Positions 3,476-9,102 of a stretch of DNA of 16,269 nt are shown one piece after another. This DNA comes from a virus. Below the pieces are notes generated by a model. It searched no databases. It was not told the origin of the DNA and saw nothing but the letters and a program-made list of their open reading frames with translations. The translations under genes were made by a program, and so were the position numbers. Where the stretch lies: the UHGV virus genome UHGV-0094181; one strand, given 5' to 3'. Numbering within the stretch: position 1 is the first letter of the stretch; every line of letters begins with the position of its first letter.

Positions 3476-3744
3476 GGGCGAATCTCCGTCCTGCCACCAA
3501 GTAAGCGGATTGCCACTCGTTCCCGGAAGGTAAGCGGTCGATGGTGTCCGCGGGCATTAACAATTTCAGGCTTTCCATTAGGCGGATAATTGACCCTGAC
3601 CGATTGACCATCTAGCGCGTGAGAAGCCTCGAGTAGTGCTGACTTTAAGTGCGCAGGGCACTCTTTCTGCACCCACTCGCCGTCTGAAATGACACCTGCA
3701 ATCCCCTGAAGCATGCTGGCTAAATTGCTGAGATAATTTTTCAC
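3472..3744 (-). CDS. Hypothetical protein, about 90 aa (probable start at second GTG)
   Basis: AAAGGAGA RBS; ATGA-type overlap with downstream gene start at 3475; not recognised. Confidence 0.5.
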   Translation of the reverse strand: MKNYLSNLASMLQGIAGVISDGEWVQKECPAHLKSALLEASHALDGQSVRVNYPPNGKPEIVNARGHHRPLTFRERVAIRLLGGRTEIRP

Positions 3745-3746
3745 AT

Positions 3747-4187
3747 TCACTCTCCTTTACCGGTGCCATAGGCAGATAAGCACTCTTCAAATCCAGCCTG
3801 ATTATCCGTTTGACCAAAACTGAAGCCATGCTGAAGACCATGACGAAATGCGCTATCTTGCAATTTATCTGCGGTTTCGAGCTTCGCCTCCAGTTCTGCT
3901 ATGCGCTCTTCATAGCGAGCACCAACCGATACGGCTTTATGGAAGGCTTCGCACCACTTTGACGATTGCGCCTGCATCTTCTCCAGCTCATCCAGCAGCG
4001 CCAGCACGGTAGTGGGGTTTGCTGCGGAGTTCAGCGCGTTCAAGGCAGTGATATCTGCATCAAGCTGAGTTCCTTCTGCCAGTGAGATATCGAAAATGTC
4101 ATCAGGCGGCATAACACTAAGGCGCTCATGTGCGCCAACTGCTGCCGCTGCGATTTCACGCAGCGCCTGTTTGTCGATGTTTCTCAT
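3747..4187 (-). CDS. Ead/Ea22-like protein, 146 aa; N-terminal 68 aa nearly identical to ORF 4184-4711
   Basis: AGGAGG RBS 7 nt upstream; MRNIDKQALREIAAAAVGAHERL... N-terminus duplicated; start overlaps upstream stop (ATGA). Confidence 0.65.
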   Translation of the reverse strand: MRNIDKQALREIAAAAVGAHERLSVMPPDDIFDISLAEGTQLDADITALNALNSAANPTTVLALLDELEKMQAQSSKWCEAFHKAVSVGARYEERIAELEAKLETADKLQDSAFRHGLQHGFSFGQTDNQAGFEECLSAYGTGKGE

Positions 4188-4194
4188 TGGGCGG
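3999..4194. repeat. Direct repeat copy 1 (196 bp perfect match to 4523-4718)
   Basis: Aligned by eye: identical from cgccagcacgg... to ...cattgggcgg; one mismatch at 3998 just outside. Confidence 0.85.
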
Positions 4195-4711
4195 CCTCCT
4201 GGCGGTCTATGCGTTCAATTTCAGCCAGAATAAGTGCGCCAGCTTTTACTAAGTCGCGGCGTGCTCCTGATTGCTTCCACCAGTCAGGAGACCACGGCCA
4301 ATGTGCTGGAGTGGAGAAACCTTGGTTGTGCGCATGAATTGCGTAACAAGCCGCTGCATCTGCTAATTCGCTATTTTGATATGCGTTGTCATGTTCAGGA
4401 GTCCATCCTTCAACCGACTGTTGCCGCTGGCGTTCTGCTACCACATCAAGAATTGCGGGATTGAATGCGCCCCCCTCCAGTTCTGCTATGCGCTTCTCTG
4501 CGGCTTCCAACTCATCCAGCATCGCCAGCACGGTAGTGGGGTTTGCTGCGGAGTTCAGCGCGTTCAAGGCAGTGATATCTGCATCAAGCTGAGTTCCTTC
4601 TGCCAGTGAGATATCGAAAATGTCATCAGGCGGCATAACACTAAGGCGCTCATGTGCGCCAACTGCTGCCGCTGCGATTTCACGCAGCGCCTGTTTGTCG
4701 ATGTTTCTCAT
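4184..4711 (-). CDS. Ead/Ea22-like protein with DUF550-like C-terminal domain, 175 aa
   Basis: C-terminal EGWTPEHDNAYQ...HWPWSPDWWKQSGARRDLVKAGALILAEIERIDR resembles DUF550 as I recall it; N-terminus duplicated in 3747-4187. Confidence 0.7.
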   Translation of the reverse strand: MRNIDKQALREIAAAAVGAHERLSVMPPDDIFDISLAEGTQLDADITALNALNSAANPTTVLAMLDELEAAEKRIAELEGGAFNPAILDVVAERQRQQSVEGWTPEHDNAYQNSELADAAACYAIHAHNQGFSTPAHWPWSPDWWKQSGARRDLVKAGALILAEIERIDRQEAAQ

Positions 4712-4718
4712 TGGGCGG
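4523..4718. repeat. Direct repeat copy 2 (196 bp perfect match to 3999-4194)
   Basis: See copy 1; offset 524 bp. Confidence 0.85.
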
Positions 4719-4980
4719 TTCCTTCGTAACCGATGGCTTCTGCAATTTCAGCAAGTGTCTCTGCACTTTCACCCACTGGCTCATTCATCCAGTCGAAGGA
4801 AACAAGCTTACCGCCTTCGATAACGCCGATGTTGAAATCATCACTACCTTGTGTTTTCAGACCATGCTTGATTGCCTTATCGCGCTTATCGAAGTCAACG
4901 CCGTCTGTCGTGTATTCAACTCCATGGCCTTTCTCGTTGCACCACCAGTACTGCTGAATAACGATGTATGATTTGCTCAT
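4708..4980 (-). CDS. Hypothetical protein, 90 aa
   Basis: AAAGGAG RBS; ATGA overlaps at both ends (4977-4980 and 4708-4711); not recognised. Confidence 0.6.
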   Translation of the reverse strand: MSKSYIVIQQYWWCNEKGHGVEYTTDGVDFDKRDKAIKHGLKTQGSDDFNIGVIEGGKLVSFDWMNEPVGESAETLAEIAEAIGYEGTAQ

Positions 4981-5630
4981 GACTGCACTCCTTTGCGAAT
5001 CTGCTCCCTGAACAAGCGGGCTGAGACGATGATGTCTCTGATGCGTACTGATTTTTCGTCGAACTGCTCACCACCGTTTTTAATATGCGCATCCAGTTCT
5101 GCACTGTGATGCCGAATGAAAGCGTTGAGGTCATGCGCCCGCACTTCAGCCAGGAAATCGTCGGTGGCTGGGGTTGACTCTTGTGGTGACACAGCAACAC
5201 GAATGGCATCAAGTGCCGGGTCTGTATCTACTGTAGGAACCTTGATATAACCCAGTTGCACACCGTTCATGATGAACGTTCGACGGTCCTCACATGTCGC
5301 CTTCAGTCCCGCATTCTCAGCAGCCAGCGTATTGCGTTCATGAGCAAGTTTTTCTGTTTCTTCTTGCGCCAGTTTGTTGACCTGTTCAGCTACTTCCATG
5401 AGTTCGTTAATCACATTTATCTTTGCAGCCATCTTCGCGCATTTAGCCTCAAGGTTATCAATCGTGATTCCAGCAGAACGACACTCCCGCAACGCCGTTT
5501 CCAGTTTTGATTCAAGTTCACCGAACTTACGGACAAGATATTCAGCGTTTGTTTCGTTAACCTTTAAATCTCGTGGGATGCATTTACCTTTCAGAAAACC
5601 ATCCATCTCAATTAGTGACATTTGTTTCAT
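4977..5630 (-). CDS. Hypothetical coiled-coil protein, about 217 aa (start at ATG 5630; ORF-track GTG at 5648 less likely)
   Basis: ATG overlaps stop of upstream 54-aa ORF (ATGA); N-terminal heptad-like charged region. Confidence 0.6.
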
Positions 5631-5791
5631 TTTTTCCCACTCCGCCACATCGCATTCAGATGTTTGTTTTGATTTACTGACGGAAAAGAATTTCTCTTAA
5701 GCAATTCCTCTCTCGATGGCATTGGCTTTACGCGTTGGCGAATAATCATTTCTGCCGGAAGAATGCCGGGATTGTATGCAAGTCCTCTCAT
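5627..5791 (-). CDS. Unlisted small ORF, 54 aa ([54 protein letters not shown])
   Basis: Below ORF-track cutoff; GAGGA RBS 7-8 nt upstream of ATG; stop overlaps next gene start (ATGA). Confidence 0.4.
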
Positions 5792-5807
5792 GGTAAATTC
5801 CTCTTTG

Positions 5808-6122
5808 TTAATTTATTCGTATGCCTGCTCTTTCTTCATCGAGTTTTTTTAGCTTGTATCGCATAGCTCTTACTGAATAAATTGAGCGGCAGGTTGCAAT
5901 TGCTATTTCTTCTGCGGAGAACTTACCGAAAAGTGATACTTCGGCTCTTGTCCATCGTCTTCCACGAAGTCGGTTAACAATGTCAGCGCCAATCCTTGTT
6001 GCTTTTGCCATTACTGCTTTTTCAGTCCTTTCCAGTTTTTCAGCGATAACTTCAACTGGCATTGTCGCCGCTACTTCGCGCAAGAAATCGACTTCCCATT
6101 TCTCCCATGGAGTCTTTTTCAT
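5808..6122 (-). CDS. Hypothetical protein, 104 aa, with two internally repeated W-x2-E...helix-turn-helix-like segments (possible DNA-binding protein)
   Basis: Internal repeat visible in translation ([40 protein letters not shown] / [35 protein letters not shown]); weak RBS, 11 nt after upstream stop. Confidence 0.55.
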
Positions 6123-6133
6123 AGGCGATACCG

Positions 6134-6616
6134 TTATTTGATAAGAAGTGAAGGTTTCCCAACTTTGAGTTGAGCGCCGGGGATATTTATTCCTGCTTTT
6201 AGTTGGTGTTTGATTGCCAGTTTGTCGGCTTTAATTGTCGTTTCAAACTCAACGTATTCAGGAGGAAGGGCGCTTGAGTCGATGATTTCTACAATTTCTG
6301 ACGGTTTGCGGATTGTTACCTGGTGAATACCTGCTCGAATCTTTTTCTTGCCAACCATTTCAAGCGATGACGCTATATATGATTTGATGCTGTCAATCTT
6401 ATTTTGAATTACTGCGGCTCGCTCATTTAGTGACTTTGCCTCTTCCTTGAGGCGTTCAGCATAACCAGATTCATTTTTAATAATGGCAAGAAGTTGCTCT
6501 ATTTTATCGGTAAATTCTCCTTCCATGCCTTCTATTGTGTCAGCAATCATCTCTGGTTCTAAATCTGAATCCATCAATTTTGCGTATTCATTGGCTATTT
6601 CATATAGTTTGCTCAC
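6134..6616 (-). CDS. Siphovirus Gp157-like protein, about 160 aa (GTG start after GGAGG)
   Basis: Size, composition and position next to recT fit the Gp157 family as I recall it; no ATG in frame, GGAGG-N6-GTG. Confidence 0.6.
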   Translation of the reverse strand: MSKLYEIANEYAKLMDSDLEPEMIADTIEGMEGEFTDKIEQLLAIIKNESGYAERLKEEAKSLNERAAVIQNKIDSIKSYIASSLEMVGKKKIRAGIHQVTIRKPSEIVEIIDSSALPPEYVEFETTIKADKLAIKHQLKAGINIPGAQLKVGKPSLLIK

Positions 6617-7514
6617 TGGCAACCTCCAGTTTAGCTTTGCATTCTATGTAAATGGCTTGTACGTTCTGCTGCAATTTCATTCCAGATGTCAGGCGATATG
6701 CTTCTGCAAAATATCGCTTCAAATCATCCATCTTTTCTGCCTGAGCCATTTCATCACAAAGAAGTTGTGCTTTTTCCATTATTTCCTGCTGGCGTTTCCG
6801 TTCATCTTCGCGGATATCTTCCTCTGATTTGTGCGGCATAACTGGTTCAGTCCACACACCTTCTTCTTCGTTTAGTACGTGAATAGCACTATCAAGACGT
6901 GATGCCTTAGGCCAATACTTGCTTGCACGCTTTACGACCGTCTTTCGCGCCATCTCATTCCAGTGATTTACCCATGGTCCTTTATCGCTGAATGCTGCCT
7001 TGCTTGTTTTCCTTACAGCCTCAATTTCAGCCAGACTCATCTCTTCCGTTAGATAATCACCTGCTGGCGTCTTAACTGTGCAGTAAACGCCAACGATATC
7101 ACCACGATCACCGAAGGCGTTGTATTTATGGGTTGGTGCTTTATCAAGCCCGTTTGACTCATAGGTATCGTTAGCATGAACAAGTTTTGCCTGACCCCAT
7201 GAGATAACACCAGACTCCATTGCAATATGGAGCAATCCCATATAGCTGATATCAAGGCAAACCATGCCGTCGCGCGGAACCAGATAAGCCAGTTTGCTGG
7301 CCGGGTTTAAGGTGATGCCGATCGCCGCAACGTTGATGATAGCGTTCTGTGCGCTGGTCGGATTTGCCAGTGCTGTTTTAGCCAGGTAATCATTTTTCTG
7401 GAAATACTGAATTGCAAACTGGCTTTCCTTAGCCCATGTGACTGATTGGTCTGTAACCGCCCCAACAAAGAGCGGCTCTTGCTGTTTAACGAACTCAACA
7501 ATGCTCATGCTCAT
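6600..7514 (-). CDS. recT: RecT-family single-strand annealing protein, 304 aa
   Basis: Conserved core ...ITLNPASKLAYLVPRDGMVCLDISYMGLLHIA... typical of RecT/Redbeta-class SSAPs; follows gam. Confidence 0.88.
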   Translation of the reverse strand: MSMSIVEFVKQQEPLFVGAVTDQSVTWAKESQFAIQYFQKNDYLAKTALANPTSAQNAIINVAAIGITLNPASKLAYLVPRDGMVCLDISYMGLLHIAMESGVISWGQAKLVHANDTYESNGLDKAPTHKYNAFGDRGDIVGVYCTVKTPAGDYLTEEMSLAEIEAVRKTSKAAFSDKGPWVNHWNEMARKTVVKRASKYWPKASRLDSAIHVLNEEEGVWTEPVMPHKSEEDIREDERKRQQEIMEKAQLLCDEMAQAEKMDDLKRYFAEAYRLTSGMKLQQNVQAIYIECKAKLEVASEQTI

Positions 7515-7516
7515 CG

Positions 7517-7813
7517 TTACTGTCCCTCATCAATATCTGTTTGGTGGCGAGCAATTGTCTCTGCCATGTAGCGAATAAATTCAGCGGCCCTTTCCTGAAA
7601 CTCGACGTCATCATCGAATGCTTTGGAAATGGCATTCTTGCTGGCCCCGCGACGTTGCAACTCGTCAACGCACAACGATTCCAGTTTGCTCTGTGGCAAT
7701 CCTTTTTCGAGGTCATCAGCCAGTTCAGATTCACGCTCTTCTCTGGCTATTTGCTGATAATGGCGCGTCCAGTTCTGCGCCTCGATACGGTCTTGAACGA
7801 GATATGCAGCCAT
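7517..7813 (-). CDS. gam: Gam host-nuclease (RecBCD) inhibitor, short GamS-like form, 98 aa
   Basis: [41 protein letters not shown]...[11 protein letters not shown]... closely matches lambda GamS from memory; AGGAG RBS 7 nt upstream; a longer ATG-initiated ORF to 7942 exists without RBS. Confidence 0.85.
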
Positions 7814-7892
7814 AATAGGCTCCTGAAATTTGGTTGTGCGCTGCCCGTCTGCGATAGCCGGACGAGTAGGGGTAATGGGTGTTTGGTGTGGT

Positions 7893-8135
7893 TTACTTGC
7901 CGAGTGCCTTGTCGATGGCGGAACGAGCCATATCAAACTCATCTGTTTGACGGTCTGCTACTCTAACTACAGCCTGCAGAGCTTCCAGTAATTCAGGCGC
8001 TGCAGTAATGAGAGTCTTGTTTTCCTTGCTCGTCATTTCAAGTGGATATCCCTTTCCAAAGACTATGTGATGCTTGTTTCCCAAGCCCTCTTCATCCCAA
8101 AACCACGGACCGGGAGTTCCTTTAAATTCGCTCAT
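7893..8135 (-). CDS. Hypothetical protein, 80 aa ([11 protein letters not shown]...[10 protein letters not shown]), paralog of ORF 8802-9080
   Basis: AGGAAG RBS 8 nt upstream; shared N-terminal EFKGTPG.W and central AAP(E/D)LLEALQ motifs with the 92-aa ORF. Confidence 0.6.
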
Positions 8136-8592: not shown

Positions 8593-8805
8593 TTATTCGC
8601 GAGCTTTGAGCATGGCATCAGCAATAAAGTAGGCATCATCTGCTAATTCTTTGTACTGTGGTGAATTCTGTCCACCGCCAAAGGAATGTCCGTCCCATCT
8701 GCGCACTATTGCTGCCATAGCCTTAGCAGCGAAGTAATCACGTAATGTCGCATCACTTGCCATTTCTGGGCGTTTGATATCTGCTTCATAAAACTCGCAC
8801 ATCAT
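8593..8805 (-). CDS. Hypothetical protein, 70 aa
   Basis: GGAGGT RBS; ATGA overlap with upstream gene; not recognised. Confidence 0.6.
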   Translation of the reverse strand: MMCEFYEADIKRPEMASDATLRDYFAAKAMAAIVRRWDGHSFGGGQNSPQYKELADDAYFIADAMLKARE

Positions 8806-9080
8806 TCACCTCCCAGAGCCTTGCTGATTGCTGCCTTGGCTCGTTTGTATTCGGTTAACTCTCTGCACCCTTCGTCATGCTCGTAAAGGAAGACAAGCTC
8901 TTGCAGTGCTTCAAGCAAATCAGGAGCTGCTGCTATCAGTAGCGCATCCTCCCTTTCATTTCTTGTTGCTGCTTCAATGTATGTGTCACCAATCGTCACA
9001 CCATGGAACGTAGTCATCATCTCGTTGACGTTTCTAACCGTGTACTTCCATTTACCAGGCGTACCCTTAAACTCTTTCAT
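8802..9080 (-). CDS. Hypothetical protein, about 92 aa (MKEFKGTPGKW...AAPDLLEALQ), paralog of ORF 7893-8135
   Basis: GAGGTG RBS before ATG at 9080 (ORF-track GTG at 9086 less likely); paralogous motifs. Confidence 0.6.
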   Translation of the reverse strand: MKEFKGTPGKWKYTVRNVNEMMTTFHGVTIGDTYIEAATRNEREDALLIAAAPDLLEALQELVFLYEHDEGCRELTEYKRAKAAISKALGGE

Positions 9081-9102
9081 ATCCACCTCTGTTGTTTATG
9101 CC

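Follow-up and report, generated by a model that had tools for sequence, protein, structure and literature searches.

Four small genes in the early operon of a lambdoid prophage appear to be separate accessory cassettes, one of them a candidate anti-defence gene

The virus genome UHGV-0094181, analysed here as one stretch of 16,269 nucleotides (nt; the window), carries four small genes between a recombination module and a pair of Ea22-like genes. The interval is the accessory (exo-xis or 'ea') region of the leftward early (PL) operon of a lambdoid Escherichia coli prophage. We name the genes and their products by protein length in amino acids (aa). From upstream to downstream, all on the minus strand, they are p104 (5808-6122), which encodes a predicted tandem helix-turn-helix (HTH) protein with two tri-helical units; p54 (5627-5791), which encodes a DUF2737 protein and whose stop overlaps the start of p217; p217 (4977-5630), a member of the HK97 gp37 / HK620 HkaH / HK446 gp27 (Oad2) family with a constant head of about 40 codons (5511-5630); and p90 (4708-4980), which encodes a stand-alone predicted alpha/beta domain that we call SDDFN (phrog_26897). 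An earlier note, made from the letters alone, had described the four as a chain of coupled genes with unrecognised content. Its four open reading frames (ORFs) and its three ATGA stop/start overlaps (5627-5630, 4977-4980 and 4708-4711) were all confirmed. So were its flanks: Ead_Ea22 paralogs lie downstream, and Sipho_Gp157 and RecT genes lie upstream. A human-gut metagenome scaffold with the same prophage is 100% identical to the first 10,630 bases of the window.

The ratio of nonsynonymous to synonymous substitution rates (dN/dS) was estimated pairwise by the Nei-Gojobori method against diverged homologs. It was 0.08 for p104 (compared with phage SEN22), 0.08-0.29 for p54, 0.50 for p217 and about 0.06 for p90. 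With values of 0.06-0.5, all four ORFs evolve as coding sequence, and the possibility that they are non-coding, raised in the earlier note, found no support. For p217, an ATG at 5630 gives 217 aa and a GTG at 5648 gives 223 aa; annotated homologs begin with MKQM. The content also proved recognisable. Family searches placed all four products in existing families: p54 in DUF2737, p104 in phrog_11492 and phrog_323, p217 in phrog_614, phrog_492 and phrog_368, and p90 in phrog_26897. PADLOC and NCBIfam searches returned nothing meaningful for the genes, an Rfam scan of the whole window found no RNA family, and a terminator scan of the minus strand called none inside the four genes.

A co-occurrence analysis, which the earlier note had proposed, gave little sign of a four-gene unit. 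Up to 80 IMG/VR loci were collected per protein seed, and the four proteins and their flanks were scored on each. All four families were found together in one of the 80 loci seeded with p217 and in one of the 64 seeded with p90. In the p90-seeded loci, p54 was present in 12, a p217-like gene in 6 and p104 in 4. Eight p90 copies with at least 99% identity are preceded by a variety of genes. A nucleotide homology profile of window positions 3700-6700 against 79 loci seeded with DUF2737 split the interval into at least four blocks. The sole block common to all 79 loci extends from about 5805 to about 5500 and covers p54 and the start of p217 (its first ~40 codons). In 26 of these loci a small island at 5200-5100 was kept, in 8 a RecT-Gp157-p104 block, and in 1-3 p90.

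Complete E. coli genomes gave a similar result: 1,406 of 5,426 matched some part of the interval, and a single one matched with at least 80% coverage. The closest records are phages Louie and Dewey and the WEM25 prophage, in which the gene order is kept and the p217 variant is divergent (53% identity in Louie, 59% in WEM25). In Louie, an extra 93-aa gene annotated 'replication initiation protein' (4015-4296) lies between the p104 and DUF2737 homologs, and the same is seen in HK140. The 16-nt spacer between p104 and p54 would also be an insertion point for cassettes. On this comparative record, the four genes appear to assort independently, as separate mosaic cassettes and not as one system. 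The interval is largely ordinary lambdoid mosaicism, with every component in a described family.

The overlaps are not special to these genes. Nine consecutive junctions overlap, from 5630 down to 2901, eight of them by 4 nt (ATGA or GTGA) and one by 1 nt, and in each a purine run resembling a Shine-Dalgarno sequence lies within the last codons of the upstream gene. An overlap with an embedded Shine-Dalgarno sequence is present between p54 and p217, between p217 and p90 (here AAAGGAG precedes the overlap and encodes the ...RKG... C-terminus of p217), and between p90 and the 175-aa Ea22-like gene (preceded by GAAGGAA). It is absent between Gp157 and p104 and between p104 and p54. The chain described earlier loses its first member: the three overlaps stand, but p104 overlaps at neither end, with 11 nt between it and Gp157 and 16 nt between it and p54. 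The latter gene has its own ribosome-binding site, AAAGAGGAA.

The overlaps are also kept with changing partners. The DUF2737 stop overlaps the next start by 4 nt in 175 of 178 distinct contexts. At the p90 start, the upstream stop overlaps as ATGA in 40 of the 64 p90 loci, with differing upstream genes, and in 38 of 40 loci there is also a 4-nt overlap between p90 and the gene that follows. Nearly all readable genes downstream of p90 have an Ea22-type head (MSNIDKQALRE... or MTDITELAQ...). Proteins encoded upstream of p90, although unrelated, end alike in ...Q[LI]R[KE]G[AV].., because AAGGAG or GAAGGAG, the Shine-Dalgarno sequence of the next gene, encodes these residues in that frame; FAKQLREGADK, upstream of p90 in a relative, and AAQLRKGVQS, the end of P22 EaE, are examples. 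The translation signals of a neighbouring gene would in this way constrain a C-terminal protein sequence.

We interpret the ATGA overlaps as the generic junction of a cassette array, kept whichever genes adjoin. For the overlapping genes, co-transcription is probable and translational coupling somewhat less so. The overlaps carry no information on stoichiometric complexes. The obligate co-expression and stoichiometric coupling that had been read from them do not hold up, given genes that assort independently and overlaps that are kept with any partner. The overlaps compact the operon, probably permit translational coupling and may act as recombination joints; the conserved junctions also account for the frequent in-frame fusions of these modules.

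At the upstream end of the interval, p104 matched phrog_11492 (5e-23) and phrog_323 ('transcriptional regulator, D5-like'; 7e-20). Its AlphaFold (AF2) model (predicted local distance difference test, pLDDT, 83.5) contains two three-helix bundles, with helices at residues 8-17, 23-30 and 34-44 and at 59-66, 70-77 and 81-103. In the family alignment, 152-aa relatives have a third unit that closely resembles the second. The duplicated HTH-like segment proposed earlier is thus present as two bundles in the model but not as a significant sequence repeat. Internal duplication at the sequence level was rejected (self-alignment score 21, shuffle mean 21.3), and a hidden Markov model (HMM) of the repeat unit scored the first unit at -0.5 bits. 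A PDB sequence search with p104 gave nothing significant.

Homologs of p104 (48-90% identity) lie directly after the last gene of three types of recombination module: Gam-RecT-Gp157 in the window, a module of Gam, a single-strand annealing protein and YqaJ in Salmonella, and DUF3799-exonuclease in Enterobacter and phage SEN22. No Shine-Dalgarno sequence was recognisable at 6123-6136 (minus strand), where the sequence before the start reads ...AAATAACGGTATCGCCT ATG. From the Gp157 stop to this start there are 11 nt. In SEN22 and the relatives from Enterobacter and Salmonella, the start of the p104-like gene either adjoins the stop before it or overlaps it. This arrangement suggests termination-reinitiation coupling of p104 to the last recombination gene.

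P22 Abc1 resembles p104 in lying at the distal end of a recombination module, in size (94 versus 104 aa) and in being of HTH type, and it adjoins the RecBCD modulator Abc2. Little is known of this HTH protein beyond two reported effects, the triggering of P4-dependent cell death and a counter-defence phenotype (bioRxiv 10.1101/2023.04.06.535777). In phage Gally, a gene 99% identical to that of p104 is annotated 'similar to P22 Abc1'. BLASTP detected no similarity between p104 and P22 Abc1. The hhalign comparison gave a weak match (probability 13.5%, E 0.002 over 36 columns), and the repeat-unit HMM scored 12.7 bits, marginally above the best of 4,000 shuffles (12.5 bits). Homology of p104 and Abc1 is unproven despite the shared position. 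Most likely, p104 would bind DNA as an accessory or regulator of the recombination module.

The best-characterised homolog of p217 is gp27 of phage HK446. The p217 protein matched phrog_614 (2e-51), together with phrog_492 and phrog_368, and aligned in BLASTP with gp27, which was the tblastn hit as well (E 1e-48, 45% identity over residues 1-214), residues 1-64 being identical at 62 of 64 positions. A bioRxiv preprint of July 2026 identifies HK446 gp27 as Oad2 (OLD anti-defence 2), which was recovered from a library screen, alone relieves both toxicity and defence by P2 OLD, and binds OLD, the abortive-infection nuclease of P2, directly (10.64898/2026.07.10.737580). According to the same preprint, P2 OLD is triggered by RecBCD inhibitors, lambda Gam included, and the Oad2 family is related to P22 EaE, with occasional fusions to HNH nucleases or to EaD/Ea22 proteins. 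We checked the numbering: gp33, Erf, gp31 and Abc2 of the preprint correspond to HK446_033 to HK446_030 in the HK446 record.

Position and sequence features tie p217 to this family. Its slot is that of P22 EaE, HK97 gp37 and HK620 HkaH. As with p217, the gene for Oad2 lies directly after DUF2737 with a 4-nt overlap (HK446_027 overlaps HK446_028). Oad2 also shares with p217 the patch TPATD(A/D)FLAEVRA and the ...Q[LI]RKG.. C-terminus, and each of the two genes has a RecBCD-modulating recombination module in its operon. In contrast to the 175-aa Oad2, p217 has an extra coiled-coil-like insertion of ~35 residues and a divergent C-terminal half. P22 EaE occupies the same slot and has the TPATDAFLAE(V/M)RA patch and a RKGVQS C-terminus. 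The Ead/Ea22-like neighbours share with p217 the phrog_368 match (over its C-terminal part) and a plan of head, coil and C-terminal domain, and some p217 relatives have a p217-type head fused to Ea22-type tails. The p217 head itself is unlike both the EaE head (MQQVKIY...) and the Ea22 heads (M[RS]NIDKQALRE...).

More than 7,659 database proteins match p217, and its exact sequence occurs on human-gut metagenome contigs. The head motif MKQM[ST]LIEMDGF was found in 144 proteins of the sampled loci, 140 of them distinct. Across these 140, identity to p217 was at least 0.92 for residues 1-35, about 0.57 for residues 46-65 and about 0.05-0.1 beyond residue 70, the steep drop setting in after about residue 40-65. 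In the head, dS reached 0.5 and dN was 0.03-0.05, values that point to purifying selection at the protein level on these ~40 residues. In p217, a constant head is followed by a coiled-coil-like segment and then by a hypervariable C-terminal region. The coiled coil noted earlier is consistent with weak, composition-type matches to SMC/SbcC/Rad50 coil segments and with the analogy to lambda Ea22, which has an N-terminal domain, a tetramerising coiled coil and a C-terminal domain (PMC10834534); nothing beyond these supported it. No match of p217 to Ead_Ea22 (PF13935) was found at E<=0.1, compared with about 1e-18 for both neighbouring paralogs. Searches for a match to the solved C-terminal domain of lambda Ea22 and for any significant PDB relative by sequence were negative.

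An anti-defence role for p217 is plausible because its homolog Oad2 is reported to inhibit the Gam-triggered OLD and the operon studied here encodes Gam, and the target of p217 would not necessarily be P2 OLD. A constant head with a hypervariable tail fits an arms race over specificity. Most likely, p217 would neutralise a defence system, of the host or of a prophage, by which the Gam/RecT module of the phage itself is detected, and the variable tail would set the target. The proposal that the interval is a location for host-takeover or anti-defence functions is therefore plausible in part, one of the four genes having such homology.

Many p217 relatives bear the NCBI name 'hNH endonuclease' and have no precomputed Pfam domain. 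No HNH match to p217 was found in Pfam or NCBIfam, and the label has probably spread to Oad2/EaE-family proteins from HNH fusion proteins. An apparent replacement of p217 by an HNH endonuclease in the WEM25 prophage was rejected for this reason: the protein is a misnamed member of the p217 family.

The gene before p217 is p54. Residues 1-52 of p54 matched Pfam PF10930 (DUF2737; E 4e-30, 103.9 bits against a cut-off of 25, 53-position profile), and p54 also matched phrog_1117 (5.5e-37). Its identity is 74% with P22 Orf56 and 94% with HK446 gp28, and its further counterparts are HK620 HkaI and HK97 gp38. P22 Orf56, HK97 gp38 and HkaI occupy the same site, between the recombination module and the gene in the EaE slot, and show no substantive difference from p54. 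A search of a literature library found no paper mentioning DUF2737. The HK620 record annotates a terminator, 'tL3', inside hkaI, and the same A/U-rich hairpin (AGGAAUU...AAUUCUU, then UUCC) is present inside p54 at 5686-5709 (minus strand). We found no support for a terminator of this type in p54: it was not called by the scan, and the region folds like its shuffles (z +0.4).

Together, p54 and p217 seem to be the only conserved dyad in the interval, the p217-type head (MKQMxLIEMDGF) being present in 55 of 57 p54-seeded contexts. This pairing could mean that the two genes form a functional unit, in which the basic p54 docks on, chaperones or regulates the constant head of p217 and the overlap sets their ratio. 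Besides the frequency of the head and of the 4-nt overlap (175 of 178 contexts), the conservation of p54 and the head as one DNA block and the purifying selection on both speak for such a unit. However, gp27 alone rescues OLD toxicity (10.64898/2026.07.10.737580), and P22 pairs Orf56 with the different head of EaE. In addition, a p217-type head follows only 31 of 59 DUF2737 genes in p104-seeded contexts, and the adjacency can be explained by a shared recombination anchor. We regard a two-gene unit as possible, with the balance of evidence leaning against it.

The genes might alternatively tune the developmental decision between lysis and lysogeny, or prophage induction, and have no part in defence. 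The interval resembles the lambda exo-xis region (orf60a, orf61, orf63, orf73, ea8.5 and ea22) in its position, in belonging to the early-left transcription unit and in its content of small accessory genes that affect the interplay of phage and host. In lambda, according to the literature, the exo-xis genes modulate lysogeny and induction, Ea22 being pro-lysogenic and orf60a, orf61 and orf63 pro-lytic. The shared genomic position and early expression class, the head, coiled-coil and C-terminal-domain plan that p217 and its neighbours have in common with lambda Ea22, and the HTH-like nature of p104 would all suit modulators. Against this, none of the four proteins matches an exo-xis family, as the earlier note had also held; PDB searches were empty, and similarity to the C-terminal domain of lambda Ea22, to Orf63 or to Ea8.5 was not found. 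An arms race accounts better than conserved regulation for the hypervariability seen in p217 (140 of 144 sequences distinct), whose nearest characterised homolog is an anti-defence protein. A role in lysis-lysogeny control is therefore doubtful.

The anti-defence reading of p217 can be extended. DUF2737 and the gene with a constant head and hypervariable tail might form a counter-defence specificity cassette, in which the head, perhaps with DUF2737, docks onto a conserved feature of sensors of the OLD class (ABC-ATPase/TOPRIM) or onto a RecBCD-related trigger, while the rapidly exchanged tails retarget it to OLD, Gabija, PARIS or retron-type guards that sense Gam/RecT. The p90 domain would then be a further exchangeable effector, either free or carried on tetramerising coiled coils. 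We consider this extended scheme speculative and, as a whole, unlikely.

The last gene of the interval, p90, matched phrog_26897 over its full length (7.4e-59, positions 1-90 of 90). The residues S46-D-D-F-N50, W64 and M65 are invariant among 46 sequences, and G40 and L59 are invariant as well in the family alignment. An alpha/beta fold is confidently predicted for p90, with no matching solved structure. Neither p90 nor its profile detected a PDB relative by sequence, and Pfam, NCBIfam and PADLOC gave no significant match. A profile search of 1.84 billion representative proteins yielded 362 relatives with the p90 domain, and 31 of the best 150 are longer than 150 aa. The sequenced enterobacterial fusions consist of a head, a coiled coil, a linker (AGFTVEGEPAP) and the p90 domain; their heads are Ea22-like or Lar-like, one being a Lar-type zinc ribbon. 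In Salmonella phage CRW-SP2 (Ackermannviridae; OR464140.1, 940-1713), the last ~85 residues of a 257-aa dCMP deaminase are a complete SDDFN domain (42% identity). This is the sole such fusion among 50,697 phage records, and we did not rely on this single record for a role in nucleotide metabolism. The p90 protein appears to be a portable module of the Ea22-like toolkit that is free-standing in the window, and it would most likely act as a protein-binding effector module.

Such fusions could indicate that p217 and p90 are the two parts of a split protein with head, coiled coil and tail, acting together, with p90 as the detached C-terminal domain. About one-fifth of the best 150 p90-domain proteins are fusions, typically of the architecture given above, and the p217 stop overlaps the p90 start. 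Yet many unrelated genes precede p90, those for P22 EaF-like proteins included, and a p217-like gene is present in only 6 of 64 p90 loci. The p217 family is moreover complete without p90, as Oad2 with its 175 aa illustrates. These observations make a split protein improbable.

A protein identical to p90 and many homologs carry the NCBI name 'antitoxin', and p90 is a small gene that overlaps both neighbours. On this basis, p90 could be an antitoxin paired with a neighbouring toxin, either p217 or the Ea22-like gene. We give this very little credence. No significant p90 match was found in Pfam, NCBIfam or PADLOC, nor a PDB relative by sequence or fold, and the neighbours vary freely, which is the opposite of what cognate toxin-antitoxin partners would show. 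Other RefSeq records call this protein 'hypothetical', and the domain is also a C-terminal module of larger proteins. The 'antitoxin' label on the SDDFN family appears to be a propagated name without detectable support.

Our overall explanation is that the four are real genes in separate accessory cassettes, with p217 a likely anti-defence gene and with generic junctions between them; we assign it a probability of about 0.7. Several points tell against it. For each query, the IMG/VR sample consists of the 64-80 best-scoring loci, so that close relatives are over-represented and some loci are redundant. An identical order of the four families is seen again in Louie, in Dewey, in the WEM25 prophage and on an IMG/VR contig, and a loose preferred gene order therefore exists. 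The linkage of p104 to Gp157/RecT in 79 of 79 loci derives from 99%-identical copies, and translational coupling at the overlaps is plausible, so that neighbours may have some dosage linkage. The Oad2 assignment depends on a single unreviewed preprint, which also reports no OLD inhibition by the homolog from HK75, a protein with 54% identity to Oad2 (10.64898/2026.07.10.737580). The identity of p217 to Oad2 is 45%, and the two differ mostly in what is likely the specificity part. Finally, a fold search with p90 gave no significant match, nor did Foldseek with the p104 model, whose top hits were bipartite HTH DNA binders (Pax paired domain, Tc3 transposase and LuxR-type).

Least credible is the reading of the earlier note that the four genes are one translationally coupled, stoichiometric host-takeover or anti-defence unit with interdependent parts, which draws on the three ATGA overlaps and on the recurrence of the families in this order in Louie, in the WEM25 prophage and on a single IMG/VR contig but appears largely refuted by comparative data: p104 has no overlap, the overlaps are operon-wide and independent of the partner, the homology profile splits the interval into at least four blocks, a single locus in each seeded set (of 64 and of 80) has all four families, the order recurs with a divergent p217 variant or an extra gene, and Oad2 alone suffices for its phenotype (10.64898/2026.07.10.737580).

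A four-gene system is hence not worth pursuing, the arrangement being ordinary mosaicism. The interval provides one more variant of the Oad2 family beside a Gam/RecT/Gp157 module, and the set of proteins with a constant head and hypervariable tail (140 distinct of 144) is a panel for mapping the specificity of anti-OLD-type inhibitors. Two misleading database labels are flagged: the SDDFN domain is named 'antitoxin', and Oad2-like proteins are named 'hNH endonuclease'. The interval also contains two well-conserved modules with a clear genomic logic, the predicted tandem-HTH protein at the end of recombination modules and the portable alpha/beta domain without a solved structural relative.

The neighbouring genes are all on the minus strand as well. 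Directly upstream of p104 lies the Sipho_Gp157 gene ('Mu Gam-like end protection'; 6134-6616, Pfam 6e-38, phrog_253), which is also called on the identical metagenome contig. It is preceded by the gene for the RecT single-strand annealing protein (6600-7514; Pfam RecT 3.6e-32, phrog_148 8e-90) and by a gene for a lambda-type Gam, the RecBCD inhibitor (7517-7813; phrog_259 1e-50). In the window, Gam is read from a 141-aa ORF (7517-7942), in which the lambda-type Gam domain is confined to residues 44-139; the identical contig calls a 98-aa gene (7517-7813), to which PF06064 was assigned. With Gam, RecT and Gp157 together, a single recombination module would contain two putative end-protection or RecBCD-related functions.

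Downstream of p90 are the two Ead/Ea22-like paralogs of 175 and 146 aa (4184-4711 and 3747-4187; Pfam PF13935, 5.6e-18 and 4.1e-19). They have in common a 213-nt direct repeat that is 99% identical between 3982-4194 and 4506-4718 and that begins a few bases before the ATGA, crosses the junction and runs through the MRNIDKQALREIAAAA... head. The repeat resembles a ready substrate for duplication, deletion or exchange of cassettes. Further upstream in the same operon, two small paralogous genes (7893-8135 and 8802-9086) belong to phrog_1273, and both products begin with M..EFKGTPG.W; on the identical contig, both are assigned to PF27050 (Phage_P22_Y8K6).

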